From positions 1,312,001-1,376,000 of the forward strand of contig OX638340.1 of the NCBI GenBank assembly GCA_951812955.1: 64,000 nt of DNA, written 5' to 3'. Shown here piece after piece: positions 2,465 to 50,157 of the stretch. Source of the stretch: an uncultured Gemmatimonadota bacterium (GTDB lineage Bacteria > JAAXHH01). The notes under the pieces were generated by a model. It saw only the letters and a list, made by a program, of their open reading frames with translations, was not told the origin of the DNA and did no database searches. The stretch's first letter is position 1, and every line of letters begins with the position of its first letter. The translations under genes and the position numbers were made by a program.

Positions 2465-4402
2465 TCAATAACCGCTGTTCCCTAACCTGACACCGATGTA
2501 GCCGGTCATGCCCACGGTTCCGTATCCCAGGATTTCCTCGTACTCCGCATTGAGCAGATTGTCGATCCTTCCGAATAACTGGATGTTCGGTGTGACCTTC
2601 CAATTGGCGGCCACATTCACGATCCCGTAGCCATCCAGCGTTACCGGTGTGGCGGGCCAGGTCGAGAAGTCGTTGTCCCTTCGCTCCCCCGAAAAACGGA
2701 AACTCAGGTTCAGATCTACGCCCTGCCGTACTCGCTGATCAAGGACGATCCCGCCGCTGTGCCTCGGCCGTCTCAATAACTGCTCATCCGACTCATGGTC
2801 CTTCGAATCGGTCAAAGTATAGTAGGCACGCAGGGAAGTTCCCGCGATTCCCACATACCGTCCGGTCAACTCCAACCCCTTGCTTGTGGCCTTGAACACG
2901 TTCTTGTAACTGGATGTTTCGCTGTCCCACCCGACCATATTGTCGAAGGTATTGTCGAAATAGGTCACGCCGGCCACCAGCTTCTGATCGGCCAGGTACT
3001 GCTCCAGCCCCGCTTCCCAGCTCTTGCTGGTCCCGGCCTGGAGCGTGGAATCACCGAAGGAAGAATGCAGTTGAAACAGTGACGGCGCCTTGTAACCCGT
3101 ACCGTAGGCGCCTTTGATCCTGATTCCCGACGCTTCGAAGTACGCGTTTGGCGCGATGCTGTAGGTGACTTTAGAACCGTACCGGCTGTGATGATCGGCT
3201 CGCACGCCAAGGGTTGCAAACAGCGTATTGCCATACTGCAGCAACTCCTGCAGATAAGCACCGGTCATCCTTGCGGATCGGCGATCGAACTTGCTCGGGA
3301 ATCGGCCCCTTGATTCTGATTCTCCCTGTTCCGTTTCGGTTTCGGCGCCGAATACGAGCGTATTCCCGCCAGACAGCATCAGCGTGTTCTGCCAGTCTAT
3401 TTTGTGCAACCGCGCGTAGAACGTGGAGTTCGAAGCCGTTTCCTGGTTCTCGTCCACCGGATTGTCGTCTTCCCTGCTGTGATCGACGAGGCTATATCCC
3501 AGGGTCTGCTTCCATCGCTGCGACCACAATTCGAGGGTGGCCGAGGGACGGACAAACAGTTGCCTGGAGGAGTTTACCCGATTGGGATCGTCCCCATCGG
3601 GACCGGCTCCATTATCGATATCGGCCCGGCCATCCGTGAAACGAAACGTGAGATCGACCGAAGCATTCGCGGCGGGCGTCGCCCCGAAGCGTCCACCCAC
3701 CGTGGTGTTTCGATAGCCGTCTTCTTCCTGGTTCCCCAGGGCATTCGCTGAAATACCCCGAGCGTTCAGGAAGGAGCCGTCGATCGCATACTGGTAACTG
3801 TCCGTTCCGCCATTCAATCCCGCCCGGCTTCGAAACGTACCCAGGGCGCCGCCCTCGAAGGATGCCCCGATCTTTGGCTTACCCTCACCGCGCTTCGTAA
3901 TGATGTTCACGACCCCCGCGATGGCGTCCGACCCGTACAGTGTACTCTGGGACCCGTACAGCACCTCGATACGTTCTACCTGGTCGACGGTCAGATGCGC
4001 CGGGCTGTAGCCGCGACCCGGAGACATGGCATCGTTGACCTCGATTCCATCGATCAGAAACAGGGTGTAGGACGATTCGGCACCGCGAAGAAAAACAGAC
4101 GCGTTATTACCCGTGCCGCCAGCCTGTGCCATGCTCAAACCGCCCACGTCGCGCAGCACGCCGGCGACCGTGTTCTGGCTGCTGCGTTCGATATCGTCGG
4201 CGGTGATTACGGCGATCGAGCTCGACACCTGCCGCAAGGGTGTTTCGATTTTCGCAGCGGTTACGACAACGGCATCCAGAATGTATCTGGGTTCCTGGTC
4301 CACCGGGTCCTCCGGGTCCGGTGAATTCTGCGCAAATCCTGGCGCTGCGGACAGCAGGTAAAAACAGAGCACGGCTTTAATCGCATGTGGTATGTGTTTC
4401 AT
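2465..4402 (-). CDS. btuB: TonB-dependent outer-membrane receptor, vitamin B12 (BtuB)-like
   Basis: Signal peptide MKHIPHAIKAVLCFYLLSAAPGFAQ, a TonB-box/plug region (LDAVVVTAAKIETPL) and a C-terminal barrel ending in an aromatic residue. A cobalamin riboswitch lies directly upstream. The start is set at the internal ATG (4402), which has GGGAGG upstream. Confidence 0.85.
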   Translation of the reverse strand: MKHIPHAIKAVLCFYLLSAAPGFAQNSPDPEDPVDQEPRYILDAVVVTAAKIETPLRQVSSSIAVITADDIERSSQNTVAGVLRDVGGLSMAQAGGTGNNASVFLRGAESSYTLFLIDGIEVNDAMSPGRGYSPAHLTVDQVERIEVLYGSQSTLYGSDAIAGVVNIITKRGEGKPKIGASFEGGALGTFRSRAGLNGGTDSYQYAIDGSFLNARGISANALGNQEEDGYRNTTVGGRFGATPAANASVDLTFRFTDGRADIDNGAGPDGDDPNRVNSSRQLFVRPSATLELWSQRWKQTLGYSLVDHSREDDNPVDENQETASNSTFYARLHKIDWQNTLMLSGGNTLVFGAETETEQGESESRGRFPSKFDRRSARMTGAYLQELLQYGNTLFATLGVRADHHSRYGSKVTYSIAPNAYFEASGIRIKGAYGTGYKAPSLFQLHSSFGDSTLQAGTSKSWEAGLEQYLADQKLVAGVTYFDNTFDNMVGWDSETSSYKNVFKATSKGLELTGRYVGIAGTSLRAYYTLTDSKDHESDEQLLRRPRHSGGIVLDQRVRQGVDLNLSFRFSGERRDNDFSTWPATPVTLDGYGIVNVAANWKVTPNIQLFGRIDNLLNAEYEEILGYGTVGMTGYIGVRLGNSGY

Positions 4403-4492
4403 CTTGCCTCCCGATATGGTAGATGGTTCGGTGCCTGCAAATTGACGACGCGCATTGGGGTCCATCAGGTCGTTGATTCAGATCGATCTCCT

Positions 4493-4537
4493 TTAAATAA
4501 AAAATCCCCGTACCTGAACGTTGTCAGATACGGGGAT
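4493..4537 (-). terminator. intrinsic terminator/attenuator hairpin between the riboswitch aptamer and the btuB start
   Basis: Minus strand reads ATCCCCGTA-(16 nt)-TACGGGGAT followed by TTTTTTATTT. This is a 9-bp GC-rich stem with a U tract, placed in the 5' leader. Confidence 0.65.
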
Positions 4538-4675
4538 GCCGTTTGTCATCCTCGGAATACGGCCACTTGCAGATTACGCCCCAATGAATATACTACGGGA
4601 CAAAAACGCCTGGCGGCCGTACTTACGATTATCCATGTACACCGGACGACTTCAGTCCACGGAAGTCCCGATGAA

Positions 4676-4850
4676 AACTATGGGCAGGTCGGTCTTCTGG
4701 CTTCCGGATCGATCTACTCGCCGCGCCTTCCCATTCCCGGAGGAACAGTGGCTCGAGCACTATGGCTCTTGATGCGGTTTTCGTCCCCGGTCACAGCGAC
4801 GGGTCCGCGACGGATTCGCACCGTCTTCCCAACTTCTCACCTGCTCCTGT
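4676..4850 (-). ncRNA. cobalamin (B12) riboswitch aptamer
   Basis: Minus strand contains GGGAAGACGGTGCGAATCCGTCGCGGACCCGTCGCTGTGA (conserved core). It also contains GCCACTG...GGGAATGGGAAGGCG and the B12 box AGCCAGAAGACCGACCTGCC. Confidence 0.9.
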
Positions 4851-4851
4851 C

Positions 4852-4880
4852 AAGATAGTACCGTTTCGGGGTGAGATCAA
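4852..4880 (-). promoter_or_regulatory. putative sigma70-type promoter driving the riboswitch-btuB transcript
   Basis: Minus strand reads TTGATC-N17-TATCTT, just upstream of the aptamer 5' end. Confidence 0.4.
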
Positions 4881-5006
4881 TCGAAAACTGCGGATTACCT
4901 TAAGGTCGCAGCAAAACTGCTACGTGAGCTACTGGGAAGTGTAATCCTTGATGCGAGGGAGGATTGGTCCGGAGGCGTTCTGGAATCCGCATACAAGCGT
5001 CAATAA

Positions 5007-5762
5007 TTATGACACTTCGATAAGTATCCTGCAATGATCGCTGGGACCCCATTCTTCCGGCTTGTTCAGTGCCGTTGTTCTGATGGAATTCTTCATGCTT
5101 CGTGAAGCAAACACGTAATCCAGCTGCCTGGTGGCCGTCGCAGGTTTTTGACTGGTATGATAGTATGTGGGACCCTGGGGGCCTATCATGGGCAGACCAA
5201 TTGATGACATCCTGTCGAATACTGCTTTCTTGCGGGTCTTCCAGTATTCGTTGCTTCCATCGCCATCCATCACAGTTGTATCTCCAGCCGCGATCATCCT
5301 GAAACTGTTCTTCCTGCCTATAAGCAGCGAGATGTCCGATATGATGCGATGGATCGACGTGTCTACTAGATCACGGCTTTTAAGGCCCGATGATGGATGA
5401 TATGCCTCATACTGGGGACAGAATGACACTACATGAATCGGCCAGTCCCGGAATTTGCCTTCAAGAGGGGTCACAACGGCCGCGGACAGGCATCCCGGAT
5501 GACTGGACTGTATATCATCCAGATAACACACCTTAACCCTGTCGGATGTTTTTACTATAGCACATCTGGATCGTGCTTTGCCCCGACTATCTGGTCTAAG
5601 TGGGTCCTTTTTGTAGTATGGCGCAGGATCCACTTCAATTCTGCCAGCCACATCCTTTGGCGGTTTATAGCCTTCCTGGAGCAGGACAATATCTACGTCC
5701 AGATCAGGCAAGGATCTCCATGCCGCCCTGCGATGCCCGATATTCCAGCAGACCAGTTTCAT
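5007..5762 (-). CDS. endonuclease/exonuclease/phosphatase (EEP) family protein, copy 1
   Basis: N-terminus MKLVCWNIG, then LLQE, AAGD and C-terminal PSDHCRI, which are EEP catalytic-motif positions. Paralog of 32432..33244. The longest ORF starts at 5783, but 5762 has GGAG upstream and aligns with the paralog N-terminus. Local GC is about 48%. Confidence 0.75.
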   Translation of the reverse strand: MKLVCWNIGHRRAAWRSLPDLDVDIVLLQEGYKPPKDVAGRIEVDPAPYYKKDPLRPDSRGKARSRCAIVKTSDRVKVCYLDDIQSSHPGCLSAAVVTPLEGKFRDWPIHVVSFCPQYEAYHPSSGLKSRDLVDTSIHRIISDISLLIGRKNSFRMIAAGDTTVMDGDGSNEYWKTRKKAVFDRMSSIGLPMIGPQGPTYYHTSQKPATATRQLDYVFASRSMKNSIRTTALNKPEEWGPSDHCRILIEVS

Positions 5763-5798
5763 CCAGATCTCCAAACGGTCCATCTGAAGATCGCAGCA

Positions 5799-6179
5799 CT
5801 ATGGCTTGTCGTCAAAGTACGGAGAGCAGTTTTGTTTCCAGGCCAGCCAGGTCCGACTGCCGTCGGAAGCCACAATGACGTGATCTTTGAACTTTTCCGG
5901 TATATTGGTGATTTTGCCTTGAGGGCCTTCGCCCGTTACGAACAGATCGTCCAGCGTCGTCCTTTCATGAAACAACCTGCTCTTTCCTTCGTGCACGGCG
6001 TCCTTTATTTCTGAAATCACCTGTCTGAATTCTTCTTCTATATCATCGGTTATTGTTTCCCTTTCCGACATTGTCCTTGTCTCCTTGTAGGCTTCCCACA
6101 ACCGCTTGACATGTTTGGCATACCTAAAATACTTCGCAAGCTCCAGAAGCAGTTCGAGGTATTCGGTCATGACCTGCAA
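5799..6179 (-). CDS. hypothetical protein (126 aa), upstream partner of EEP copy 1
   Basis: ORF co-directional with the EEP gene, 15-36 nt upstream of it depending on which EEP start is used, in the same low-GC patch. No motif recognised. Confidence 0.5.
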   Translation of the reverse strand: MQVMTEYLELLLELAKYFRYAKHVKRLWEAYKETRTMSERETITDDIEEEFRQVISEIKDAVHEGKSRLFHERTTLDDLFVTGEGPQGKITNIPEKFKDHVIVASDGSRTWLAWKQNCSPYFDDKP

Positions 6180-6285
6180 TGCCTGATTTAAAGGATACCC
6201 AATGCCGCCCTGAATTCAAAGGTATTCCCGATAAACATCCAAACAGCACCCTTGTACCTGGCATAGCCTCAGTTTTCTACCACAA

Positions 6286-7941
6286 TCACCACCTGGCGTT
6301 TAACTGCAAAATCCATCGTGTTTCGACGAGGGGAACCTTGAGTTGATCGTAGCGGGTCTGACGTGTCCGCGTATAACGCACCACGGTGGAAACGCCCGAT
6401 CCGACCGGTCCGTACAGCAGGATAACCCACCTATCGCGGCGGTTGGATCGAAATAGGGAGGTCGATTCCTCCGGCTCGGGTAACCCGGCCAACGTGTATT
6501 CCCACTGGGCGGACAGGCTGACACGGTCCCTGGACCGGTATCGCATGTACAATCGCAGATCGTGCGCGGGATTCAAACCGGACTGGCCGCGTCGCTCGTA
6601 GCGGGCCCGCCACTGGACCCGGGCGGGCAGCCGCCAGGCCATCTGACCTCGCCAGGATTCCAGCAGAACCGATCCATCAATTCTATGCGCATCCATCTCA
6701 CGGCGCCACACGCCCGAGAGTACGAGGCCGCCGTTCATTCTTCGGCGAAATCGGAAGGTGCTGCGCCGGTACAACTCCAAGTTGGTCAACCGGGGTTCAA
6801 CGCTCAGTTGCAGCGTGGTCCGGCGGTCCGGCCGCCAGCGCAGGAGCAGGCTCTGCCACGTCCGTTCGGACTTCTCGATGAACCGGGCATTCGGCTGACG
6901 GTGGATAGTCAGTCCCCCTTCCACGCGCTCCATGCTCCAGATCATGCCCCCCTGAACGGTCTGGTATCCCTCATCGTCGATGGCCATTTCACCGAACAGA
7001 TTCGTACCGCCGAAGAGCAAGTCCAGGTCCACGCCAGCACGTACGCGACCTTCCGTGTGAATGGCCGAGATACCGATCAGTCCACTGTTTCGCTTCCAGT
7101 CCAGGCGGCCCCCAGGTTCCCATTTTCCCGATGCGGTCCGTGAGAGGATCCCCGTCAGGCTATAACCTGGGCGGGCAATCCGCAGCGCCACGCCACGACG
7201 GGCGCCGGATACGTAGGTCGTTCTTACGGGTCTCAGTCCCCGGACACGGCGTTTCACGGACGCACTTAGACTGGCCGTCGAAGGCCGGATCGAATGACTG
7301 CGCCACACCAGTCCCTGGCCGAAATCCACTTCGTAGTATCCCAGGATCAACATGCGGGATGCATCCGCCTGACCCAGTTCCAGGTATCCCGACCGCCACC
7401 GGGTTTCACCGTCTCGATCCCGGCGTTCCCCCCGTCCGCCCAGTCTGAACGACCGTCCGAGTTCAATGTCCCCCTGCAGACCGAGGATGCCGTTTCCCGT
7501 CGCTTCCGGACGGTCGGTGCGGCTTCGCGACAGGCGCCCGCGACCCGCGGTTTTAAAGGTGCGGACACCGTCCGCCCGAATAAAGGGACTGATTCGGGAT
7601 ACAAGAGCCTCCGTGAAACCTGGAATTCGAACGAGTTCCCCCACGCTGGTGAAGGGGCCGAGCTTTTCACGCCAGGTGACGACGGCTCCGGCGAGCGCCG
7701 GCGTGATCCACGGCAGTTGTTCCAGCTCGGTCCGGCTGGCCCGGTTGATATCGAGCGGGTCGCGCCGCAAGGAGACCAGCAGCGCGATGTCCTCCGGATC
7801 GATGTCTGCTGCTTCCCGGTCGATCAGTGCATCAATGGAGTAGTCTGGTTCCTGCCCCGACCGTTCTTCAGGAGAGAAAATCATCATTGCTAGGTACACG
7901 GAGACCAGAATTCGCCATGCGTGGTACATGAACCGGCTCAT
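6286..7941 (-). CDS. ComEA-type helix-hairpin-helix domain fused to a predicted outer-membrane beta-barrel
   Basis: N-terminal signal-like segment, then the HhH motif region INRASRTELEQLPWITPALAGAVVTWREKLGPFTSVGELVRIPGF. About 420 aa of alternating R/G/aromatic beta-strand-like sequence follow, ending ...LQLNARW (C-terminal aromatic residue). Confidence 0.7.
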   Translation of the reverse strand: MSRFMYHAWRILVSVYLAMMIFSPEERSGQEPDYSIDALIDREAADIDPEDIALLVSLRRDPLDINRASRTELEQLPWITPALAGAVVTWREKLGPFTSVGELVRIPGFTEALVSRISPFIRADGVRTFKTAGRGRLSRSRTDRPEATGNGILGLQGDIELGRSFRLGGRGERRDRDGETRWRSGYLELGQADASRMLILGYYEVDFGQGLVWRSHSIRPSTASLSASVKRRVRGLRPVRTTYVSGARRGVALRIARPGYSLTGILSRTASGKWEPGGRLDWKRNSGLIGISAIHTEGRVRAGVDLDLLFGGTNLFGEMAIDDEGYQTVQGGMIWSMERVEGGLTIHRQPNARFIEKSERTWQSLLLRWRPDRRTTLQLSVEPRLTNLELYRRSTFRFRRRMNGGLVLSGVWRREMDAHRIDGSVLLESWRGQMAWRLPARVQWRARYERRGQSGLNPAHDLRLYMRYRSRDRVSLSAQWEYTLAGLPEPEESTSLFRSNRRDRWVILLYGPVGSGVSTVVRYTRTRQTRYDQLKVPLVETRWILQLNARW

Positions 7942-7942
7942 T

Positions 7943-8752
7943 TCAGCCGAATTCCATGGTGACAGAAAACCGGTGCGTGATGCCTAGCAGGGAGTGAGAC
8001 GACAGGGCGTAATCCGTTTTCACGCGGCCCTTTTCCAGGCCCAGGCCAACATAGAACAGTGACGGATCGGTCGTCAGACCCGCCCGGATCGTTACAACCT
8101 CGGCCAGGTGAAACTCCTGCCCCACCCTCGTGGTGTAGCCGTGGCGGGGGTGGTGGTCGAACTGGAACGAAACCGTCAGGCGGTCTCCCGTCCTGCTCAG
8201 CCCCGCCTGGATGATACGCGGATTCTCAGTTGCCGTGCCGGACTCCTTGAGAAGTGCGACGGCATGGGCCATCGCGCCGAGACGAAGTTGATACGGGAGA
8301 TCTATGAGGACACCCGCGTCCAACGCGACGGCGGAAGCGCCTTCGTAGTTTTTGACTGCAAGGCTCAATCGGCGAAGCGTAAGTCCCGCATGGAATCTCC
8401 TGCTGATGGATCGTCCGTAGGAAAGGCCGAACACACCCTCCCGGTACAACGAGCTTCCGAGACCGTGGTAGAACAGGCCGATGTGGCCCAGGACGGTAGG
8501 TGCGACACCGGAGATGGCCACCTGGGCCAGCTCTTTCATGCCGAATAGCCGCGTGTAGTGGCTCGTCAATGCGAACCGGCCGACCTGGGGCGTACCGCCC
8601 GGATTGAGGAAGGCCGCTTCGGCGTCATCCGCGACGGCTACGAAAGCGCCCGCCATGCCGACCGGCCTCGCACCGGCAAAAACTGGTTCGAATGCGCTCC
8701 AGGCCGTACCTGGAGTCAATAGCAGTAACAACAGCGGTAGTATCCGTTTCAT
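7943..8752 (-). CDS. PorV/PorQ- or FadL-like outer-membrane beta-barrel protein
   Basis: Signal peptide MKRILPLLLLLLTPGTAWS, the motif GARPVGMAGAFVAVADDAEAAFLNPGG, and a C-terminal F. Its stop is 1 nt from the downstream HhH-barrel start, suggesting an operon. Confidence 0.6.
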   Translation of the reverse strand: MKRILPLLLLLLTPGTAWSAFEPVFAGARPVGMAGAFVAVADDAEAAFLNPGGTPQVGRFALTSHYTRLFGMKELAQVAISGVAPTVLGHIGLFYHGLGSSLYREGVFGLSYGRSISRRFHAGLTLRRLSLAVKNYEGASAVALDAGVLIDLPYQLRLGAMAHAVALLKESGTATENPRIIQAGLSRTGDRLTVSFQFDHHPRHGYTTRVGQEFHLAEVVTIRAGLTTDPSLFYVGLGLEKGRVKTDYALSSHSLLGITHRFSVTMEFG

Positions 8753-8881
8753 TTGGGCTCCCATCTCGAAATGATCGACTTGTTTCTCTATTCAAAGCGC
8801 CACACTTCATCAGTCGGAAGCACATCATGAAATCTCGTTTTAGACTGCCATTAATCGGCCTGAACCCGCTCCAATCTCGTA

Positions 8882-8920: not shown

Positions 8921-8994
8921 GCCCCAGTAGCTCAGTTGGACAGAGCATCGGACTTCTAATCCGAGGGTCGCAGGTTCGAATCCTGCCTGGGGTA
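8921..8994 (+). tRNA. tRNA-Arg (anticodon TCT)
   Basis: Cloverleaf folded by hand: acceptor GCCCCAG/CTGGGGT, D arm GCTC..GAGC, anticodon arm TCGGA-CTTCTAA-TCCGA, T arm GCAGG-TTCGAAT-CCTGC. Length 74 nt. Confidence 0.93.
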
Positions 8995-9054
8995 TGGGAA
9001 CCGGGCTTTCAGCGTAGTCCGCGCAGTGGTTGCGCCGGTTCCCGGTTCCCCCGT

Positions 9055-9128
9055 GCGTCCGTAGCTCAGCTGGATAGAGCAACTGACTTCGGATCAGTAG
9101 GTCGGGGGTTCGAATCCCTCCGGGCGTA
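9055..9128 (+). tRNA. tRNA-Arg (anticodon TCG)
   Basis: Acceptor GCGTCCG/CGGGCGT, anticodon arm ACTGA-CTTCGGA-TCAGT, T arm GGGGG-TTCGAAT-CCCTC. Length 74 nt. Confidence 0.93.
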
Positions 9129-9194
9129 TACATTTCATCGACATCCCCATCTGTTCATCGTTTCCAAGGCATCGATTGCCGGGAAGGAACGACC

Positions 9195-32431: not shown

Positions 32432-33244
32432 TTGACCAAACTATTATGCTGGAACATTAATCGCGGGTCTGAAGAAAGTGATAGCTGGCGGGAAATAGCG
32501 AACTCGGATGCGGACATTGCACTGTTACAGGAGGCCAGAAGACCTCCTGAAGATCTATCGAATCGTTTGCAGGTGGATCCTGAAGCATTCACTCATGGTA
32601 CTTCTAGATGTGCAATCGTAAGCCTCTCCAGCAAGGTGAGCGTTCGTTTTTTAAAACCCATGCTTCTGAATGATATCGATCAAGAAGGCGACTTTACAAC
32701 CACACATCAAGGGTGCATTTCAGCCGCTATCGTCAGTCCGAATAAGGGAGAGTCGTTTACTGCAGTTTCAATTTGTGCCGAATACGAGCAGCCTCGATGT
32801 TCATCATGGAATGTAACTGACGCCTCGGTCCACCGCGTCATCTCCGACCTGTCCCTGTTCATTGGCAAACAGCGGGGACACCGTATCATCGCAGCGGGTG
32901 ATCTCACCATCAATCGAGGCTATGGTGAAGATAAAAGCGGCTACTGGAAAGGAAGGTATGACTCGGTATTCAATCGTATGGACGCCATCGGCATGTGTTT
33001 CGTCGGTCCGCAAAACCCCCATGGCTGTTCGGCCGATCCTCGACCGCAGAACATGCCCCAAGACAGCAAAAACGTGCCTACCTACTGCAAGTCGTTTAGA
33101 AAAAACCCAGCGGCAGCATACGATCAACTGGACTACGTCTTCGTGTCGGAAAGCATGGCCGATTCCGTCAAGGTGTGCGCCTTGAACCACCCTGAAGAAT
33201 GGGGGCCAAGCGATCACTGCAGGATTAAAATTATGGTAGAGTAG
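32432..33244 (+). CDS. endonuclease/exonuclease/phosphatase (EEP) family protein, copy 2
   Basis: TTG start. Motifs LLCWNINRG, LLQE, AAGD and PSDHCRI. Roughly 35-40% identical by eye to copy 1. Local GC is about 49%. Confidence 0.75.
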   Translation: MTKLLCWNINRGSEESDSWREIANSDADIALLQEARRPPEDLSNRLQVDPEAFTHGTSRCAIVSLSSKVSVRFLKPMLLNDIDQEGDFTTTHQGCISAAIVSPNKGESFTAVSICAEYEQPRCSSWNVTDASVHRVISDLSLFIGKQRGHRIIAAGDLTINRGYGEDKSGYWKGRYDSVFNRMDAIGMCFVGPQNPHGCSADPRPQNMPQDSKNVPTYCKSFRKNPAAAYDQLDYVFVSESMADSVKVCALNHPEEWGPSDHCRIKIMVE

Positions 33245-34650: not shown

Positions 34651-34686
34651 CGGTTTTTGGTCGTGCCCCCAGGGATACTGGTAGCT

Positions 34687-34971
34687 ATGCACTCGATCAT
34701 CAAACAACACCGCACCGAGATCCTCGCCCTCGCCGAACTCCACGGCGTCGCCAATGTGCGCGTGTTCGGATCCATGGCAAGGGAAGATGCTGATGACTCG
34801 AGCGACGTCGATCTACTGGTGTCGCTGCCTTCTGGTAAAACAGGCCTCGCACTTGGCGCCCTGTTGATGGACGTGCAAGACCTTCTGCAACGGCGTGTGG
34901 AAGTCGTGACCGTGAAGAGTCTTCATCCTGCTCTCCGGGATAACGTGCTGAACGAGGCGCAGTCGCTATGA
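34687..34971 (+). CDS. mntA: MNT-type nucleotidyltransferase antitoxin (HepT-MntA type VII TA)
   Basis: The motif FGSMAREDADDSSDVDLLV (GS...DxD). 94 aa, with a 4-nt ATGA overlap onto the downstream HEPN gene. Confidence 0.85.
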   Translation: MHSIIKQHRTEILALAELHGVANVRVFGSMAREDADDSSDVDLLVSLPSGKTGLALGALLMDVQDLLQRRVEVVTVKSLHPALRDNVLNEAQSL

Positions 34972-35312
34972 AATCCGACGCGCGGTCCGATAGAGTGTTG
35001 CTGGAACACATCCGAGAGTGTATTGACCGTATTAGTGAATACACCGGCTGTAAGCGCTCATCGTTCTACGCCTCGCGTCTGGTTCAGGACGCAGTGGTAC
35101 GTAATCTGCAATTGCTTGCGGAGTCAACGCAACGCCTGAGTAACGCTGTTAAAGAAACCGAGACGGATATACCCTGGCGTGCCATTGCAGGATTTCGAAA
35201 CGTGCTCGTACACGGTTATCTTGAGATTGACCTCGATGCAGTTTGGAGCGTGGTTGAACAGGACCTCCCGAAGTTATCCAGGGCAATCGATCGCATGGTC
35301 CGATCCGTATGA
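34968..35312 (+). CDS. hepT: HepT (DUF86) HEPN-domain RNase toxin
   Basis: The Rx4-6H motif in FRNVLVHGY. 114 aa, in canonical position after MNT. Confidence 0.85.
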   Translation: MKSDARSDRVLLEHIRECIDRISEYTGCKRSSFYASRLVQDAVVRNLQLLAESTQRLSNAVKETETDIPWRAIAGFRNVLVHGYLEIDLDAVWSVVEQDLPKLSRAIDRMVRSV

Positions 35313-36569: not shown

Positions 36570-38087
36570 TTGACCGTCGGAGTGGTCTCAGTGAAAAGTA
36601 CCGAAATCCGTCCAATCTGGAATCCCCGTACCGGCATTGAAGGTCTTGACGGAGATCCCAATGAACTGAGTTCTTCCGAGATCCCCGGAATAAAAGCGAG
36701 CTGGACCGAGCAGCAGGAGCGGTTGAAGGACAAGGCCCAACTTTCTGACTTCACCGAGAAGTTGAGCCGGGAATGGGCAATAGAAACCGGTATTCTTGAG
36801 AATCTATACGAAATCGACCGTGGCGTCACGCAGACTCTCATCGAGCGGGGTTTTCAATCCGAAATTCTCAGCTACGGAACGACAAATAAGCCCCGAGAAT
36901 ACGTGATCCAACTCTTGCGAGATCAGAAGGAAGCCCTGGACGGCGTATTCGCGTTCGTCAAGAACGACCGGTCCCTCACTACGTCTTACATAAAAGAACT
37001 ACACGCGGCATTACTGCGCAACCAGCACACGACCGAGGCGCTCGACAGTCTGGGTAGAACAGTTGAAGTCCCGCTCCTCAAGGGAGACTGGAAAACCCAG
37101 CCCAACTACCCCGTCCGGGATGGCGTGACGTACAGCTACTGCCCGCCGGAACAGGTTAGTTCTGAGATGGACCGGTTGCTCGAGATGCATGAGGCGCAGG
37201 TCGAAAGCGGCGTGTCTGCCGAGGTACAGGCCGCTTGGCTGCATCATCGTTTCACCCAGATCCATCCCTTTCAAGATGGAAACGGACGCGTGGTCCGTGC
37301 GATCGCTTCACTGGTGCTCGTAAAGGAAGGACTTTTCCCGCTTGTGATAAGGAGGGACGACAGGGGCAGATACCTGGAAGCCCTCGAAGCCGCCGACCTC
37401 GGCGACCTGAACCCGCTTGTCATGCTGTTCACTGGACTGCAAAGAGATCAGTTCCTGAAGGCGACCAAGATATCTGAAGAACTACGTTTGGAAGAGGACG
37501 TGCAGGTAGTCTTGGACGGGCTGGACAGGGAAGCCCGCAGAATCGCAACGGAGAGGCTCAAGGCACACAGGGAGGTATTCGGTTTGGCCAGCGCTATCGA
37601 AAATGATCTAGAAGAACGTTTGAATACGATAGCAAAAGAAGTTTCGGGAGCACTAAATCAGGTAGCGTCCGGCGCAACTACATTCGTGCGAAGATCCGAC
37701 GAGAAAACGGATTATTTCTACAGGGCGCAGATCGTCAAGATTGCAAATGAACACATTGATTATTACGCCAATACGTCCGAATACCGATCATGGGTTTCAT
37801 TAAACATGCGATGGTCGCGTCGAGGGCAGTTGGTATTCGCGCTACACGGAATCGGCAAACCATTCAACGGTGGCCTTATCTGCGCGCCATTTCTGGAATT
37901 CAGAGATTACGACGATACCGACGAGGAGCACGGCGAGCGTCAATCAAATTCAACCCTCATTCCGGTCGCCGAGGAAGGTTTCGTTTTCTTCTACAACGAG
38001 GACAAGGATCGACTTCTCGGAAGGTTCAGGCCCTGGCGGGAAAACGTCCTCAAGATTGTCATAAAAGAACTCGCGCAAAACCTCTGA
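36570..38087 (+). CDS. Fic family protein (AMPylase-type) with an uncharacterised about 240-aa C-terminal region
   Basis: Fic core HPFQDGNGRVVR. The upstream TGILEN fits the inhibitory (S/T)xxxE(G/N) helix motif. TTG start at 36570, with GTG 36591 as an alternative. GC is about 52%. Confidence 0.85.
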   Translation: MTVGVVSVKSTEIRPIWNPRTGIEGLDGDPNELSSSEIPGIKASWTEQQERLKDKAQLSDFTEKLSREWAIETGILENLYEIDRGVTQTLIERGFQSEILSYGTTNKPREYVIQLLRDQKEALDGVFAFVKNDRSLTTSYIKELHAALLRNQHTTEALDSLGRTVEVPLLKGDWKTQPNYPVRDGVTYSYCPPEQVSSEMDRLLEMHEAQVESGVSAEVQAAWLHHRFTQIHPFQDGNGRVVRAIASLVLVKEGLFPLVIRRDDRGRYLEALEAADLGDLNPLVMLFTGLQRDQFLKATKISEELRLEEDVQVVLDGLDREARRIATERLKAHREVFGLASAIENDLEERLNTIAKEVSGALNQVASGATTFVRRSDEKTDYFYRAQIVKIANEHIDYYANTSEYRSWVSLNMRWSRRGQLVFALHGIGKPFNGGLICAPFLEFRDYDDTDEEHGERQSNSTLIPVAEEGFVFFYNEDKDRLLGRFRPWRENVLKIVIKELAQNL

Positions 38088-40390: not shown

Positions 40391-40588
40391 ATGAATGTCA
40401 GTAAAGAAGAAAACACCAGACTCACTCCTTCGACAGTCAAACTCAAGCGGTTAATAGGGACCTCGCCTGCTCCTCGAATGTTGACGCCATACGAAATCAA
40501 GTTGCTGCGGCAAGCCGCGAAGGAAGTGGCCGAAGTTACGGAAGAAGTCCTCGCTGAGAAAGACAGTAGTAAGGAAGAAGGATGCTGA
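40391..40588 (+). CDS. small hypothetical ORF (65 aa) overlapping the cas3 start
   Basis: ATG ORF whose stop (GGATGCTGA) overlaps the cas3 ATG by 7 nt. The tail is charged and helical-looking. No recognised motif, and coding status is unproven. Confidence 0.35.
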   Translation: MNVSKEENTRLTPSTVKLKRLIGTSPAPRMLTPYEIKLLRQAAKEVAEVTEEVLAEKDSSKEEGC

Positions 40589-43045
40589 CCTTCGAGCGGT
40601 TTTTCTCCACAGCGTTCGGTAAAGACGTTTGTCCTTTCGCCTATCAACAGGCTCTCGCAAAGCAGGCCTGGCCAGACGCGCTCATTGCTCCGACCGGCCT
40701 TGGCAAGACCGCCGCGGTGGTGCTTGGTTGGGCCTGGAAACACGCCGTAGTCGAATCTCCAACTCCACGTCGCCTCGTTTATTGCCTGCCTATGCGCACG
40801 CTCGTCGAGCAAACCGAGCGGAATGTCAGAGAATGGCTGCGTGAACTGGGCAAAGCAAATACGGACTGGAAATCACGCCTTCCGGACCCTGAAGCCGGAG
40901 TCCATGTCCTCATGGGCGGCATGGATGAGCCGCGCTGGTTTGAAACACCTGAACGACCGGCCATCCTGATCGGAACTCAAGATATGCTGATCAGCCGCGC
41001 CCTGATGCGGGGGTACGCCATGAGCCGCTTCCGCTGGCCAGTGGACTTCGCCTTGTTGCACAACGACGCGCAGTGGGTTTTTGACGAAGTGCAATTGATG
41101 GGAGCAGGCCTGGCGACCTCTACACAACTCGAAGGTTTTCGTCGTACGTTCGGAACGGAGATCCCTTCGTGCAGTCTCTGGGTGTCAGCGACCCTTCACC
41201 CGGACTGGCTACATACGGTTGATTTCCAGCAACGTCCTACGGTGTGGCGTGTTCCATGTGATTTCCCCGACGATATACATTCATCGCAAGTCCTCAAACT
41301 GATTAACGCGTGTAAGCCAATTCAGCCGTCGTCCGTCGCGCCGATGAGTGCCAAGAAGGCCGATCTGAACGCATACGCGACAGCGTTGGCGAAGGAAACC
41401 CGGAGTCTGCACCAAGAAAACAATACGACGCTTGTGGTACTCAATACAGTCGCCCGCGCCCAAGCCGTGCATAAAGCACTTCAGAAGATGGATGTTGCGC
41501 CTGCTTGCCTTGCTCTCATCCACTCGCGGTTTCGGCCTAAAGATCGCACCCGGCAGATGGACAAGTTGCCGCAAACCGGGGAAACAAAAAAACTGATCGT
41601 AGTCGCGACGCAGGCGATTGAAGCAGGTATCGATCTATCAGCGGCGGTCCTGCTCACCGAACTCGCGCCTCCTTCGTCCCTTACCCAGCGGTTCGGTCGG
41701 GTAAATCGCTACGGTGAGTTGAACGATTCCGGTGGCGGGACGGTCCGCTGGATAGATATCATCGGAGGCGACCTCGGTGATTCGTTGGCGGCTCCGTATG
41801 AGATTAACGAACTCAAAATCGGGCGCGAGCGGATTGCCGCGTTAAAGGACGCTCGGCCCTCTAATCTCGTGCCGCCCGCATCAGACGACTGCGCCTATCG
41901 GGGTGTGATACGATCCAGGGATATGCTGGACCTATACGACACCGATCCGGATTTGACCGGCTTTGATGTCGATATCGCTCCTTACGTCCGCGATGCTGAA
42001 GATACCGATATTCGAGTTTTCTGGCGCGATTTCGACGTGCAGTCTGGACCAGAGGACCAGACTGCACCCATGCGGGACGAGCTTTGTGCGGTTCCGATTG
42101 GGCGCGCGCGTAACTGGCTTAGGGATGTCAGAAAGAAGGAAGGGCAGCGGGTATTTCGCATAGACCCGCAGGCACGAGCTAATGGGAAGGGTAGCGTTCC
42201 GACTTGGACCGCGTTCCGAGAGGAACCGTGGCCGGGTTTGGTGTTGATGGTTCATGCGAGTGCTGGGGGTTATGCACCGGACACGGGGTTTGATCAGGGT
42301 CTAAAAACAGCAGTCGAGCCTGTGAAGCTAGGAGAGGAACAGCAGACGGCAGACGAGTCGAACGACGGCGATTCCGACAGCGAGCAGAGCAGGTGCGTGG
42401 AACTGACGGATCATCTGGACCACGTGGCTTTTGAAGCCAGATACCTATGCGATGGCCTCGACGTTTGTGAAGCTTGGAAAGCCACAATCCTCCAGGCAGC
42501 GTACTGGCACGACCTCGGTAAAGCACACCCTGAGTTTCAGGCGCGAATGGTTGCAAGTAACACGGAGGCCGACCCACCACCAGAAGGGTTGCTAGCCAAG
42601 GCTCCGAAGTACGACCGCACGAAAGGACGTGCATATTTCCGGCACGAACTTGCGTCTGCACTAGCATTTCTCACACAAGCAGGCTGGGTACGCAAGGCCG
42701 ATCTTGTTGCGTACCTGATAGCCGCCCATCACGGCAAGGTACGCCTGAACTTGCGTCCCCTACCAGCCGAAAGTCGGGTAATGGGGGAGGATGGACGGCG
42801 TTTTGCTCGCGGCGTGTGGGAGGGAGACGAGATACCGTTGGTTAGTTTGGGCAATGGGGAAACATGGACAGGGGGGCCACTCGCACTATCCGTGATGGAG
42901 TTAGGCGAGCATCCGGAAACTGGGGCAAGTTGGACCGAGCGTACGCGAAATTTGCTTTCCCAGTACGGTCCTTTTCAGCTCGCTTGGTTGGAGGCACTTG
43001 TACGTATCGCCGACTGGCGGGCATCAGCAAAAGAAGAACGAGGTC

Positions 43046-43062
<17 letters not shown>
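40582..43062 (+). CDS. cas3: type I-G (I-U) Cas3 helicase-nuclease with N-terminal helicase and C-terminal HD domain
   Basis: Walker A APTGLGKT, DEAD-like FDEVQLMG, and helicase C IVVATQAIEAGIDLS. HD residues sit at the C-terminus (HLDHV, WHDLGK, FRHELAS, AAHHGK). Confidence 0.9.
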
Positions 43063-46598
<3,536 letters not shown>

Positions 46599-46605
46599 GT
46601 CTCGA

Positions 46606-48240
46606 ATGTTTGCACTTACTTTCACCTTTCCTTTGGGCCGCTATCACGCAACGCCGTGGGGGCGCCATGTCAACGAAGCCGATGTCGCTTGGCCGCCAGA
46701 GCCTTGGCGCATTCTTCGTGCGCTCGTCGCTACCTACTGGCGCAAAGGCGACCGGGTACGCTGGTCCGAGGACACACTCGCCCGTCTAGTAGACGCGCTA
46801 GCCCAGGATGCGCCGATCTATCACTTGCCCCCAGGCGTGATCCACGCACATACCCGGCATTACATGCCCACACCTAAAATGACGCTCGTCTTCGACGCCT
46901 TTGCCCACTTGTCTAAAGACGAACAGATCGTAGCGGCTTGGCCAGAACTCGAATTGGACGTCGAACTATTTGATTTGGCGGCTGATCTCGCAGAGGGGCT
47001 CGGCTACCTGGGGCGTGCCGAGAGTTGGGTTGAATGCGGAACGATAACCGACTGGAACCAAGATGTGGCAAACTGCCATCCTGTGGGCCAAAATGGGACC
47101 GCCCACGGGGAGATAGTGCGAGTGCTCACACCGCTCAGTGCTCAGGATTATATGGTGGAGCGTACGCGCCTGTTGGAGGAAGTTGACGATGCAGAGCGAG
47201 ACCGCACCGCTGCTTCCGGCAAGAGACCTCCTACCCCCAGAGCCCTTGAAAGGGCACGCAACAAAGCGTTCGGGCCGACCCTTCCTGATCGTCTGGTCGA
47301 AGCCTTGATGCTCGATACGGCCGATTACCAAAAATACCGTTGGAACCGACCGCCAGCCTCACGTGAGATTGTTTATACACGTCCGCCTCTGTCCCCTGTT
47401 CCTCGCCGTGCCCGGATTCGTGCAACAGTTGATGACCGCAGACAATTCACCGTAGCGCGCTTTCTTTTGGCCGGCCGTCCCCGACCTCGTATTGAGGATG
47501 CGGTCAAGATCGGTGAACTCATGCGGCTTGCCGCGCTTTCCAAGTTTGGTTGGGAGGACAAGAGACCCAGAGCACCGTCGGTGATATCAGGCCGGGGTTC
47601 TGATGGCCGACCATTACGCAACGGCCAGCATTCGCATGCGTTTTGGTTGCCCGAGGACGCCGATGGCGATGGCTGGATTGACCATATAACGGTTTACGCA
47701 GAGGAAGGTTTCGATGTTTCAGTGCGCGAGAAGCTGGATCGACTGACCCGTTTGTGGGTCGGTGGAGACGATTCCGGTGGAGAGGAAGGAGATAAAGAGA
47801 CCGGTCGCCAAGAGTGGCGACTGGCCTTGGAGGGCTTTGGCCGCCCGGAGGACTTTGCGGACACATCAAGGCTATTTAGCTGTTCAGATGAATGGGAAAG
47901 TGTAACACCTTTTTTGGCGTCTGGTCACTTAAAAAAGGCCGGGTATGAAGGCGAGATACATCGGCTTTGGAAGCGCAGACGAGTCACATCTGGTTCGCAT
48001 ACTGAGCCTGTACAGGTCGAAATCTTGCGCCACATCGAGATTCACGGTACTCTCCGTAGAGCAGTGCATTTTCATCGATTCCGTTCACGGGGACGAGAGA
48101 AGCAACCCGACGCGCAAGGGGCCTTGCTGCGCCTGAGTTTTAACGAGCCAGTTACAGGACCCTTAGCTCTTGGATATGCCTGCCATTTTGGTCTTGGAAT
48201 GTTCGCACGCCCAATCCTAGACGCAAAATCGGAACAATGA
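46606..48240 (+). CDS. csb2: type I-G Cas5-Cas6 fusion (Csb2)
   Basis: The N-terminus FTFPLGRYHATPWGRHVNEADVAWPPEPWRILRAL is typical of Csb2. 544 aa. Confidence 0.85.
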   Translation: MFALTFTFPLGRYHATPWGRHVNEADVAWPPEPWRILRALVATYWRKGDRVRWSEDTLARLVDALAQDAPIYHLPPGVIHAHTRHYMPTPKMTLVFDAFAHLSKDEQIVAAWPELELDVELFDLAADLAEGLGYLGRAESWVECGTITDWNQDVANCHPVGQNGTAHGEIVRVLTPLSAQDYMVERTRLLEEVDDAERDRTAASGKRPPTPRALERARNKAFGPTLPDRLVEALMLDTADYQKYRWNRPPASREIVYTRPPLSPVPRRARIRATVDDRRQFTVARFLLAGRPRPRIEDAVKIGELMRLAALSKFGWEDKRPRAPSVISGRGSDGRPLRNGQHSHAFWLPEDADGDGWIDHITVYAEEGFDVSVREKLDRLTRLWVGGDDSGGEEGDKETGRQEWRLALEGFGRPEDFADTSRLFSCSDEWESVTPFLASGHLKKAGYEGEIHRLWKRRRVTSGSHTEPVQVEILRHIEIHGTLRRAVHFHRFRSRGREKQPDAQGALLRLSFNEPVTGPLALGYACHFGLGMFARPILDAKSEQ

Positions 48241-48444
48241 AACGCAGCATTTACAATGACACCTCAGTCATTGGAGTTTGTTATAGAGTTGTTTCAAGGA
48301 AGCTATAACTGTCGATCGATTCTTACATAATCTCGATGTTGTTCATACAGCCTTAAGTCGAGACGTATCCCTGGACCCACGACAGCTAAAACGTACGAAC
48401 ATTTTGCAGAACGAGTAGCCGCGAATACTTCAGCGACTCACCAC

Positions 48445-50157
48445 ATGAACCACATCCACCAACTCACGCTACCAATACCTCCGCCCCCAGTCGACGCGAA
48501 TACGCCATTGGTCCCAGCGCGCATGGTCAACGAATGGGTCTATTGCCCGCGACTGGCCTACCTGGAATGGGTTGAAGGAGAGTGGGCGGAGACGGGAGAC
48601 ACCGCCGAGGGACGGCGTACACACGTAAGGGTCGACGAAGGTGGCGGCCGTCTGCCCGGACCGGAAGAACTGGATGATGAGATGGCCCGCGCCCGGTCCG
48701 TCACGCTTTCGTCGGATCGTCTCGGCGTAATCGCCAAGATAGACGTCGTGGAAGCCGAAGAAGGAATCGTCACGCCCGTGGATTTCAAGAAAGGCAAGCG
48801 TCCCCATGTCGCCACTGGCGCCTACGAGCCCGAACGCGTCCAGATCTGCACGCAGGCCATGATCCTGGAGGACAATGGTTACAGAGTGGAGCGCGGTATG
48901 CTCTGGTACGCCGGGTCGCGTGAGCGCGTCCCGGTGATGCTTGACGATGAACTTCGATCCCTGACCCTGGCGGCAATCAGAGAATTGCGCGTCGCCGCGG
49001 CTGATGGCCGTCGGCCACCGCCTCTGGAAAACAGCCCGAAGTGCCCCCGCTGTGCCCTGGCGGGGATCTGTCTGCCCGACGAAACCAACCTGTTCCGCAA
49101 AGGGACTGCACCACGCCCGCTGAACCCATCGGATGATCCGGCCCTGCCGCTCTACGTACAGGAACCGGGGGCGCGACTGCGAAAGAGCGGTGAGCGCTTG
49201 GTGGTGGAAATCAAGGAAGAATCCGTAGAGGTACCCATAATCGACGTTTCCCAGGTCGCTCTGTTCGGCCCCGTCTCGGTGACCACACCGGCTCTGCACG
49301 CGCTGATGAACGCGGAGATTCCGGTATCGTGGTTTTCCACGGGAGGCTGGTTCCTCGGCCATACAGTAGGAACAGGGCATGGAAACGTGGCCGTTCGCGA
49401 AGCGCAATACCGCGTAGCCTTCGATAAAGGCGCTCGCCTTGCCTTCGCGCGCGATCTCGTGGCGGCTAAGGCGCGTAACGCCCGTACGATGTTGCGTCGC
49501 AACTGGCGCGTCAATATGGACGCGGAAATCAGGGATGAAGCCCTAGTCCGGCTCAGGGGAGTCGTGCGCCGCATCTCCCGCGCCACGGACGAAAGCCAAC
49601 TGCTGGGCCTGGAAGGCGAGGCCGCCGCAGTGTATTTCAACTGCTTCGAGCACATGCTTGCTAAGGATCTGGACGGCGGCGCGACGGGGTTCTCCTTCAC
49701 CAAGCGCAATCGGCGGCCTCCCACGGATCCGGTGAACGCGCTCCTGTCGCTGGCCTACGCTTTGTTGACGCGGGTATTCACTACGACCATCTCGGCGACG
49801 GGGCTCGACCCCTACATGGGCCTCTACCACCATACGCGCCACGGGCGCCCGGCGCTGTCCCTCGATCTAATGGAACCGTTCAGACCTATTGTCGCCGACT
49901 CCTGCGTTATTCAAGCCATCAACAACGGCGAAGTAAAGCTGGCCGATTTCGTGTTCAACGGGGCTGCTTGTTCGCTGAAGCCTGCTGGTCGCAAGTCCTT
50001 CATCGCCGCGTTCGAGCGGCGCATGGAGCAGGAGACCACACATCCGCTTTTCGGCTATCGCGTTTCCATGCGGCGACTTATCGAGGTACAGTCCCGATTG
50101 CTCGCCCGGCATTTTCAGGGAGAGATCGTCTCTTACCCTCATTATCTTCCCCGGTAG
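48445..50157 (+). CDS. cas1: Cas4-Cas1 fusion integrase/nuclease
   Basis: The N-terminal Cas4 part has YCPRLAYLEW and the Cys cluster CPRCALAGICLPDE. The C-terminal Cas1 part has PLYVQEPGARLRK...PTDPVNALLSLAY...GLYH. Confidence 0.9.
   Translation: MNHIHQLTLPIPPPPVDANTPLVPARMVNEWVYCPRLAYLEWVEGEWAETGDTAEGRRTHVRVDEGGGRLPGPEELDDEMARARSVTLSSDRLGVIAKIDVVEAEEGIVTPVDFKKGKRPHVATGAYEPERVQICTQAMILEDNGYRVERGMLWYAGSRERVPVMLDDELRSLTLAAIRELRVAAADGRRPPPLENSPKCPRCALAGICLPDETNLFRKGTAPRPLNPSDDPALPLYVQEPGARLRKSGERLVVEIKEESVEVPIIDVSQVALFGPVSVTTPALHALMNAEIPVSWFSTGGWFLGHTVGTGHGNVAVREAQYRVAFDKGARLAFARDLVAAKARNARTMLRRNWRVNMDAEIRDEALVRLRGVVRRISRATDESQLLGLEGEAAAVYFNCFEHMLAKDLDGGATGFSFTKRNRRPPTDPVNALLSLAYALLTRVFTTTISATGLDPYMGLYHHTRHGRPALSLDLMEPFRPIVADSCVIQAINNGEVKLADFVFNGAACSLKPAGRKSFIAAFERRMEQETTHPLFGYRVSMRRLIEVQSRLLARHFQGEIVSYPHYLPR

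Follow-up and report, generated by a model that had tools for sequence, protein, structure and literature searches.

A mobile EEP-fold gene, probably encoding a nuclease, beside a separable orphan gene in a low-GC patch of a Gemmatimonadota genome

In a 64,000-nucleotide stretch of DNA from an uncultured Gemmatimonadota bacterium (contig OX638340.1; the whole stretch is called the window), we analyzed a low-GC patch at 5007-6179 that carries two genes on the minus strand, a small orphan gene and, following it, a gene for a protein of the endonuclease/exonuclease/phosphatase (EEP) fold. Our reading, held with moderate confidence, is that the patch is a dispensable accessory islet in which a mobile cytoplasmic EEP phosphodiesterase, probably a nuclease, stands beside an orphan gene that is unrelated or at most loosely tied to it and can be separated from it. 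The islet would occupy a variable slot downstream of a clade-specific gene encoding an HHH_3 protein; the EEP gene would behave as a single-gene mobile cassette that is exchanged across phyla, multi-copy in some genomes, easily lost and carried as a moron by a phage; and the 90-aa acidic core of the orphan protein would work without need for an adjacent EEP. The EEP protein is an uncharacterised branch of the known EEP superfamily. If our reading is true, one more such branch is added to a well-known superfamily and a single nuclease-fold gene is seen circulating between phyla and into phage within a shared habitat, which would help annotation and work on gene flow in sponge microbiomes but is not surprising; the finding would gain weight should the family turn out to be a conflict gene or the small protein an EEP inhibitor.

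Fold and Residues of the EEP Protein

AlphaFold2 modeling of the EEP protein, built on 35 homologs, gave a four-layer alpha/beta sandwich (pLDDT 87.5, pTM 0.88). Foldseek comparison with the PDB placed the TRAS1 and R1Bm retrotransposon endonucleases first, followed by ExoIII, Mth212, ExoA, NExo and APE1, these best matches having E-values of 1e-12 to 1e-9, TM-scores of 0.62-0.68 and identities of 14-19%. There were 197 PDB chains at E<=1e-3, and all of those among the matches listed were EEP proteins. The Pfam model PF03372 scored 21.7 bits, under its gathering score of 24.5, with precomputed PF03372 matches present on some of the homologs, and the NCBIfam xth equivalogs were not reached (TIGR00633, 14.7 vs. 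99.05; TIGR00195, 13.1 vs. 182.55).

A preliminary description, made from the sequence alone, had assigned the protein to the EEP family with its catalytic motif positions kept. The assignment is borne out by the fold and by the motifs WN (N7), LLQE (E30), AAGD (D161), QLDYVF (D215) and SDH (D242-H243), all present and conserved in the family: E30, D215 and H243 are invariant in the family alignment, while N7, D161 and D242 are at least 90% conserved, and WN/QE, GD and LDY...SDHC line up with those of ExoIII homologs in a hidden Markov model alignment. The claim about catalytic positions stood for six of the seven; the canonical Asn of GDxN is Thr163 in the window protein. Among 120 listed homologs the residue after GDx was T in 69, N in 21, S in 12, V in 11 and A in 5, the motif being missing from 2. 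Such variation is uncommon for the EEP superfamily.

By its fold and retained residues the protein would most likely be an Mg2+-dependent phosphodiesterase acting on nucleic acid, in which E30 would bind the metal, H243 with D215 and D242 would activate water, and N7 and D161 would contact the phosphate. Ends or nicks in DNA or RNA would be its substrate. Its gene shows purifying selection (dN/dS 0.15). Because the first beta-strand of the fold begins at residue 2 and no hydrophobic segment is present (maximum 19-residue hydropathy 0.86), the protein is taken to be cytoplasmic, without a signal peptide, in agreement with the preliminary description.

Non-LTR retrotransposon endonucleases (TRAS1, R1Bm and the L1 type) give the best Foldseek matches (E 1e-12 to 1e-11; for TRAS1 and R1Bm, TM 0.62-0.64 normalized to the query and 0.70-0.73 to the target), and they are, as the window protein would be, compact EEP nucleases on mobile genetic entities. 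The window protein is, by contrast, free-standing and without a reverse transcriptase, its gene is bacterial or phage-borne, and neither target-site repeats nor the ends of an element could be seen around it.

Composition and Layout of the Islet

The GC content was 0.496 at 5007-6179 and 0.494 at 4889-6285, with surroundings at about 60-62%; the patch of roughly 1.3 kb seen earlier is therefore real, at 49.6% rather than the claimed value of about 48%. In 1300-bp windows GC had a mean of 0.598 (standard deviation 0.035) over the whole stretch; the lowest value of all, 0.492, was at the window starting at 5001, and values below 0.52 occurred elsewhere solely in the stretch from 31651 (31.6 kb), the site of an EEP paralog. 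GC at third codon positions (GC3) was 0.53 in the EEP gene and 0.59 in the small gene vs. 0.69-0.72 in neighboring genes. These results support the view that the patch is compositionally foreign. Two marks of a horizontally acquired islet were observed: its composition is atypical, and close relatives differ in whether they have the EEP gene. The trees of the islet genes agree with that of the flanking HHH_3 gene, which argues that the islet is old in this clade. No mobility genes or flanking repeats were found at the islet, nor any at the borders of insertions and deletions, and no tRNA gene forms its border, the nearest being 2.7 kb off, past two genes of native GC.

The two genes are co-directional, as previously described. 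With the longest EEP open reading frame (ORF) the gap between them is 15 nt; with the start supported by homologs (M8, ATG 5762; 251 aa, 97% coverage) it is 36 nt. The spacer is kept in alignments with L002, L004, L005 and L088 (relatives' loci are cited by such labels), and a scan of 5763..5798 found no promoter-like or terminator-like site. Similarly, neither a consensus promoter nor a terminator was seen on the minus strand of 6171..6285, upstream of the small gene, and a promoter and terminator scan of 4400-6500 did no better than on shuffled sequence, except for a riboswitch terminator at 4537-4504.

The small gene is a real, clade-conserved gene as the preliminary description proposed, with a length of 123 aa rather than 126. 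All 33 homolog clusters of its protein are at least 68% identical to it over 63-98% of the query and belong to one Gemmatimonadota clade, in which the gene follows the HHH_3 gene; a profile search of 1.84 billion representatives returned this clade, fragments and coiled-coil noise, with no distant relative. The conserved part is an acidic core of 90 aa (residues 34-123) with a conserved GGAG ahead of it. In eight clusters the protein begins at M34, in L087 a stop codon directly precedes the core, and dN/dS was 0.14-0.27 in the core and 0.19-0.90 in codons 1-33. The predicted structure, two long helices with a small beta unit, was of low confidence (pLDDT 65.5), and searching with its fold was uninformative. 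No homology to a known antitoxin or inhibitor was found in Pfam, NCBIfam, PADLOC, PHROGs, or the profile and fold searches.

Presence, Absence, and Separability of the Two Genes

Across the Gemmatimonadota clade the ancestral order is a gene for a 269/273-aa protein, the HHH_3 gene, the small gene, the EEP gene, an arginase gene on the opposite strand, a riboswitch and a TonB receptor gene. Both the small gene and the EEP gene are intact in the window and in L002-L004, L005, L088, L096, L097 and L098; the small gene is intact and EEP absent in L001, L085/L086 and L087; both are broken in L008 (OY762445.1, the closest complete chromosome), with the small gene split and EEP frameshifted; the small gene is a relic and EEP absent in L091 and L092/L093; and L090 has neither gene. 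The flanks of L001 are about 96% identical to those of the window, with 4889-5800 cleanly missing. A 2.45-kb insertion (L008:3396-5850) interrupts the small gene of L008; it contains a transposase of the IS1595 family and a frameshifted N6/N4 DNA methylase whose C-terminal domain is Mrr/restriction-endonuclease-like. The slot is thus variable, having undergone this insertion, a replacement by a coiled-coil gene and several deletions. An arginase is called on the opposite strand in L002, L004, L005 and L085-L088 where the window holds a relic of about 70 nt, and since it is intact there in relatives it was deleted in the window lineage, leaving the relic, the cobalamin riboswitch and the TonB-dependent receptor as the minus-strand order past EEP.

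Each gene persists where the other is missing. Between lineages that lack EEP, the core of the small gene remains under purifying selection (dN/dS 0.22 for L085-L087 and 0.14 for L001-L085). Conversely, EEP genes occur without the small gene on two phage contigs (L094 and L095), in a sister EEP clade (L006/L089, 68% identity) that has a different conserved gene of 124-141 aa upstream, and at 74 of the 80 EEP loci kept from our genome scan, the exceptions (L005 and L008) belonging to the window's own clade. The same is true of EEP2, the divergent paralog that the preliminary description had placed in a second low-GC patch at 32.4 kb; the two proteins are 41% identical (BLASTP, E 6e-68) and the paralog has a GC of 0.50. 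A divergent MFS gene lies on one side of it and a DUF1697 gene 9 nt past its end, an order repeated in L007, and it has no small-gene partner. On contig VXTP01000006.1 (L007, L092) EEP2 is intact where the small gene is just a relic, which indicates that EEP2 does not depend on the small gene. The lack of any small-gene homolog beside EEP2 in the window and at the 74 scan loci suggests that the fold is not intrinsically in need of an inhibitor. Taken together, the maintenance of each gene without the other, the lack of a partner across the family and the lack of a match to any defense or toxin model lead us to read the EEP gene as stand-alone and the small gene as an orphan of this lineage that would have its own function.

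Distribution and Transfer of the EEP Family

The EEP family comprises 1144 protein clusters at E<=1e-3. A pattern scan of 185,579 species-representative genomes gave at least 597 matching stretches, 533 of them confirmed as EEP loci, in Chloroflexota, Acidimicrobiia, Alpha- and Gammaproteobacteria, Gemmatimonadota, Spirochaetia, Binatia, Acidobacteria, Deinococcota and others. Many carriers are metagenome-assembled genomes (MAGs) whose bin names we take to be sponge-derived, as presumably are the MAGs of the window's own Gemmatimonadota lineage; the family also occurs in MAGs from bog, groundwater, soil and sediment.

The closest relative lay in another phylum or class for 18 of 64 EEP genes, and cross-phylum identities reached 78-91% (Alphaproteobacteria/Binatia, 90.7%; Gammaproteobacteria/Chloroflexota, 86%), values subject to the caveat of MAG mis-binning. 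The DNA common to transferred copies was often limited to the ORF, and several genomes hold two EEP copies. Searches for terminal or flanking repeats around EEP in the window, L023, L030, L050 and L084 gave none that was convincing. Homing-endonuclease-like behavior was considered and rejected, as insertion sites in different phyla have no common flanks.

No conserved neighbor accompanies the family. All-vs-all clustering of ORFs within 3 kb of EEP at 80 loci returned nothing but EEP and shadow ORFs; the 127 immediately flanking ORFs at 65 loci fell into 94 Pfam families, mostly metabolic and with at most 3 ORFs each, none of the 25 commonest being a defense-gene family; and upstream co-directional ORF families recurred only as syntenic neighbors in closely related genomes. 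No housekeeping or DNA-repair context appeared in this comparison of neighborhoods, a comparison that the preliminary description had proposed.

An EEP gene 78% identical to the window gene in amino acids and 81-84% in nucleotides is present on two IMG/VR contigs (L094 and L095), and nucleotide similarity between phage and window is confined to the EEP ORF. In L095:1-5998 the gene lies between portal and Mu-F-like head-morphogenesis genes on one side and a cement/virion structural gene on the other (Pfam and PHROG). Its opposite strand, its lower GC3 (0.66 vs. 0.78-0.89 in adjoining structural genes) and its position in the head module make it look like a moron. The phage copy is 86-87% identical to those of L005 and L002, to which the window copy is 83% identical, so the phage gene is nested within the chromosomal clade. 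The likeness to phage morons is that of the L095 gene, a lower-GC3 insert on the opposite strand between head-morphogenesis genes; the window EEP differs in being chromosomal with no prophage genes around it, and one phage lineage alone carries the gene among 2.9 million viral contigs. No small-gene homolog was found in L094 or L095, whose EEP1-clade gene (the clade of the window EEP) is intact. As a separate observation, two tiny acidic helical ORFs (57-58 aa) lie upstream of the phage EEP.

Other collections gave little. None of 50,697 phage records matched the EEP protein, and a plasmid collection gave only remote matches (24%), on Sinorhizobium plasmids of 0.77-1.4 Mb. For EEP, the small protein and EEP2, PADLOC-DB 2.0 gave 0 families at E<=1, and PHROGs and NCBIfam scans gave nothing usable. 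Literature searches returned nothing relevant on EEP/PF03372 in sponge symbionts or as a toxin-antitoxin or immunity partner; neither PADLOC nor these searches matched an EEP-based toxin/immunity or defense system.

Alternative Roles

We infer that the EEP protein would serve as an accessory nuclease in conflict between host and mobile elements and not in repair. The mobility of EEP, its phage copy and the position of EEP2 make a defense or conflict role for EEP by itself plausible, but the genes flanking the family as a whole do not support it. Rather unlikely, in our estimate, is the specific proposal of an anti-phage or anti-plasmid defense gene, in which a stand-alone EEP nuclease is perhaps joined within the clade by the small protein as sensor or regulator. 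It would account for a gene that is patchy, horizontally mobile, multi-copy and present or absent at the level of strains, for the location of EEP2 1.4 kb from an MntA/HepT pair and bordering a Fic gene and a type I CRISPR-Cas locus, for the slot of L008 having taken an insertion sequence with a methylase/Mrr-like gene, and for a phage-borne copy, as morons often serve superinfection exclusion. Opposed to it are the lack of a PADLOC or PHROG match, the mostly metabolic immediate neighbors at 65 loci with no defense family among the 25 commonest of 94, the empty search of phage records and the remote plasmid matches described above, and the restriction to a single phage lineage among the viral contigs.

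The preliminary description had likened the arrangement to a toxin/immunity or small defense module, and several observations do weigh against our reading and toward such a link. Wherever a chromosomal locus of the clade has EEP intact, 35-36 nt separate it from the small gene ahead of it, and the 36-nt same-strand adjacency is kept in 8 loci besides the window. Identity matrices for the HHH_3, small-gene and EEP sequences are congruent, which indicates that both genes have long been co-inherited, vertically within the clade and with repeated loss. The small gene is often decayed where an intact EEP is missing (L008, L091 and L092/L093). Low GC3 is common to the two genes, and a core of pI 4.84 beside an EEP of pI 9.26 recalls nuclease-inhibitor pairs. 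In addition, the variable GDxN Asn (T, N, S, V or A) means that nuclease chemistry is not assured.

These points can be gathered into a type II toxin-antitoxin-like pair, in which the acidic small protein inhibits the basic EEP nuclease and loss of EEP leaves an orphan antitoxin. The analogy is with nuclease-inhibitor and type II toxin-antitoxin pairs (barnase-barstar and colicin DNase-Im): the gene of a small acidic protein directly precedes, on one strand, that of a basic protein with a nuclease fold. Antitoxin-first order with a 36-nt gap, a small gene upstream in every chromosomal EEP1 locus, contrasting pI (4.8 vs. 9.3), shared low GC3, decay of the small gene in several EEP-less lineages, and losses that involve EEP only or both genes and never the small gene only would all fit. 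We nevertheless judge the pair improbable, and the earlier likening did not hold up: unlike the genes of such pairs, those of the window are separable in nature, have no family-wide partner and show no homology to an antitoxin or inhibitor. The phage EEP1 copy (78% identity), EEP2 and 74 of 80 scan loci (L005 and L008 of the window's clade being the exceptions) have no small gene, another gene lies upstream in the sister clade L006/L089, the core is under purifying selection in the EEP-less lineages (L001, L085/L086, L087), PADLOC gave no match for the three proteins, and members of the EEP1 clade have pI values of 5.3 to 9.5.

Given the 35-36-nt adjacency, a lineage-specific functional link between EEP and the small gene may exist. 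A wider version, to which we give a similarly small chance, would make the acidic core a dedicated inhibitor or regulator of EEP in this clade and the EEP family a phage-shuttled conflict gene of sponge symbionts, its conflict role being defense, superinfection exclusion or anti-defense; that would amount to an undescribed EEP-based nuclease/inhibitor module. The inhibitor or regulator role is kept alive by the adjacency, the asymmetric losses, the decay in EEP-less lineages and the contrasting charges.

Housekeeping or auxiliary DNA repair, with EEP as an ExoIII/APE1-like AP endonuclease or 3'-phosphodiesterase, seems to us quite improbable. The ExoIII/APE1-type enzymes (Xth, ExoA, Mth212, NExo and APE1) are among the closest solved folds (Foldseek E 1e-10 to 1e-9, TM 0.63-0.68) and share with the window protein the N-terminal WN and QE and the C-terminal (L)DY...SDH(C) paired by the hidden Markov model, a similar size and a cytoplasmic location, with weak C-terminal similarity to the xth model TIGR00633. 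However, identity is 14-17%, the NCBIfam xth models fail (14.7 against a cut-off of 99), and whereas ExoIII/APE1 enzymes are near-universal and housekeeping, the window EEP is accessory, patchy and horizontally mobile: the family is rare (at least 533 confirmed loci in 185,579 genomes) and crosses phyla, its composition here is atypical and it is deleted or frameshifted in sister strains. Moreover, N212 of APE1 is an essential Asn; the corresponding residue is Thr in the window EEP and even Val or Ala in relatives.

A clade-specific envelope DNA-handling block, in which an outer-membrane protein, the ComEA-like HHH_3 protein, the small protein and EEP would together take up or break down external DNA, is very unlikely. 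It would draw on the conserved order of the four genes on one strand, the ComEA-type DNA-binding motif of HHH_3 and the congruent gene trees. Yet neither EEP nor the small protein shows a signal peptide or a membrane segment, the other two being envelope proteins, and EEP and small-gene loss has left the 269-aa/HHH_3 pair in place in L001, L085-L087 and L090-L093; the composition of the islet is sharply unlike that of the HHH_3 gene, and EEP relatives elsewhere have no HHH_3 neighbor. Equally far from likely is a host-directed effector of sponge symbionts, a phage-spread EEP of the lipid- or inositol-phosphatase or CdtB-like type, for which the carrier bin names that we take to be sponge-derived, the cross-phylum transfer, the phage copy and the sphingomyelinase SmcL at rank 15 of the fold matches could be cited, against the missing secretion signal, the lead of nucleases in the fold search (TM-score of SmcL just 0.54) and the MAGs from other habitats.

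Neighboring Features and Additional Observations

Coordinates are collected in Table 1.

Table 1. Features of the islet, of the paralog EEP2 and of their surroundings in the window.
Feature	Position	Strand	Remarks
TonB-dependent receptor gene	2465-4465	-	Plug and barrel
Terminator-like hairpin	4537-4504	-	Expression-platform terminator
Cobalamin riboswitch	4670-4859	-	Rfam RF00174, 94.8 bits
EEP 3' flank	4889..5006	.	About 70-nt relic of arginase 3' end, aligned to L002, L004, L005, L085-L088
EEP-fold gene	5007..5762	-	251 aa from M8, stop in coordinates; open frame reaches ATG 5783 (ORF 5007..5783)
Spacer between EEP and small gene	5763..5798	-	36 nt; GGAG 6 nt ahead of M8 ATG
Small orphan gene	5799..6170	-	123 aa, ATG 6170; longest ORF 5799..6179; core residues 34-123 at 5799..6071
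Intergenic, HHH_3 to small gene	6171..6285	-	Conserved among relatives (alignments)
273-aa and HHH_3 protein genes	6286-8764	-	Overlap by one base
Two tRNA-Arg genes	8921-9129	+	Anticodons TCT and TCG, 60 nt apart
EEP2 paralog	32432..33244	+	270 aa; GC3 0.535
MntA-like and HepT-like genes	34657-35312	+	PF01909 and PF01934, 4-nt overlap
Fic/DOC-domain protein gene	36570-38087	+	505 aa
CRISPR-Cas locus	40582-50157	+	Cas3 with C-terminal HD domain, GSU0053-family Cas protein, Cas4-Cas1 fusion
CRISPR array	50738-53218	+	37-nt repeats (Rfam CRISPR-DR16)

The riboswitch and its terminator precede the TonB-dependent receptor gene in a BtuB-like arrangement, and the riboswitch region adds to a low-GC stretch that begins near 4350. 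On the other side of the islet, the 273-aa protein has a signal-peptide-like N-terminus and no Pfam match, and the HHH_3 protein (551 aa) has its ComEA-type motif at residues 62-122 ahead of a long uncharacterised C-terminal part; the pair is clade-restricted, with just 57 clusters, each at least 63% identical.

Further EEP-related genes were seen at other loci. A larger PF03372 protein (422-445 aa) is encoded on the opposite strand about 3.3 kb upstream of the small gene in L002-L004, and tandem EEP duplications occur in two Dehalococcoidia genomes (L028:4913-5914 and L035:4720-5904), where the upstream neighbor is itself a family member. The upstream genes of the sister clade (L006:5558-5932 and L089:1856-2281) are 59% identical to each other and have no Pfam match; their sequence pattern PDD...VQLK may recall PD-(D/E)XK nucleases.

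Downstream of EEP2, the MntA-like nucleotidyltransferase and HepT-like RNase form an HEPN/MNT toxin-antitoxin pair 1.4 kb from the paralog, and the Fic/DOC gene lies in a lower-GC stretch between this pair and the cas genes. The CRISPR-Cas locus also holds two large proteins without a Pfam match, and its layout looks like that of type I-U/I-G.

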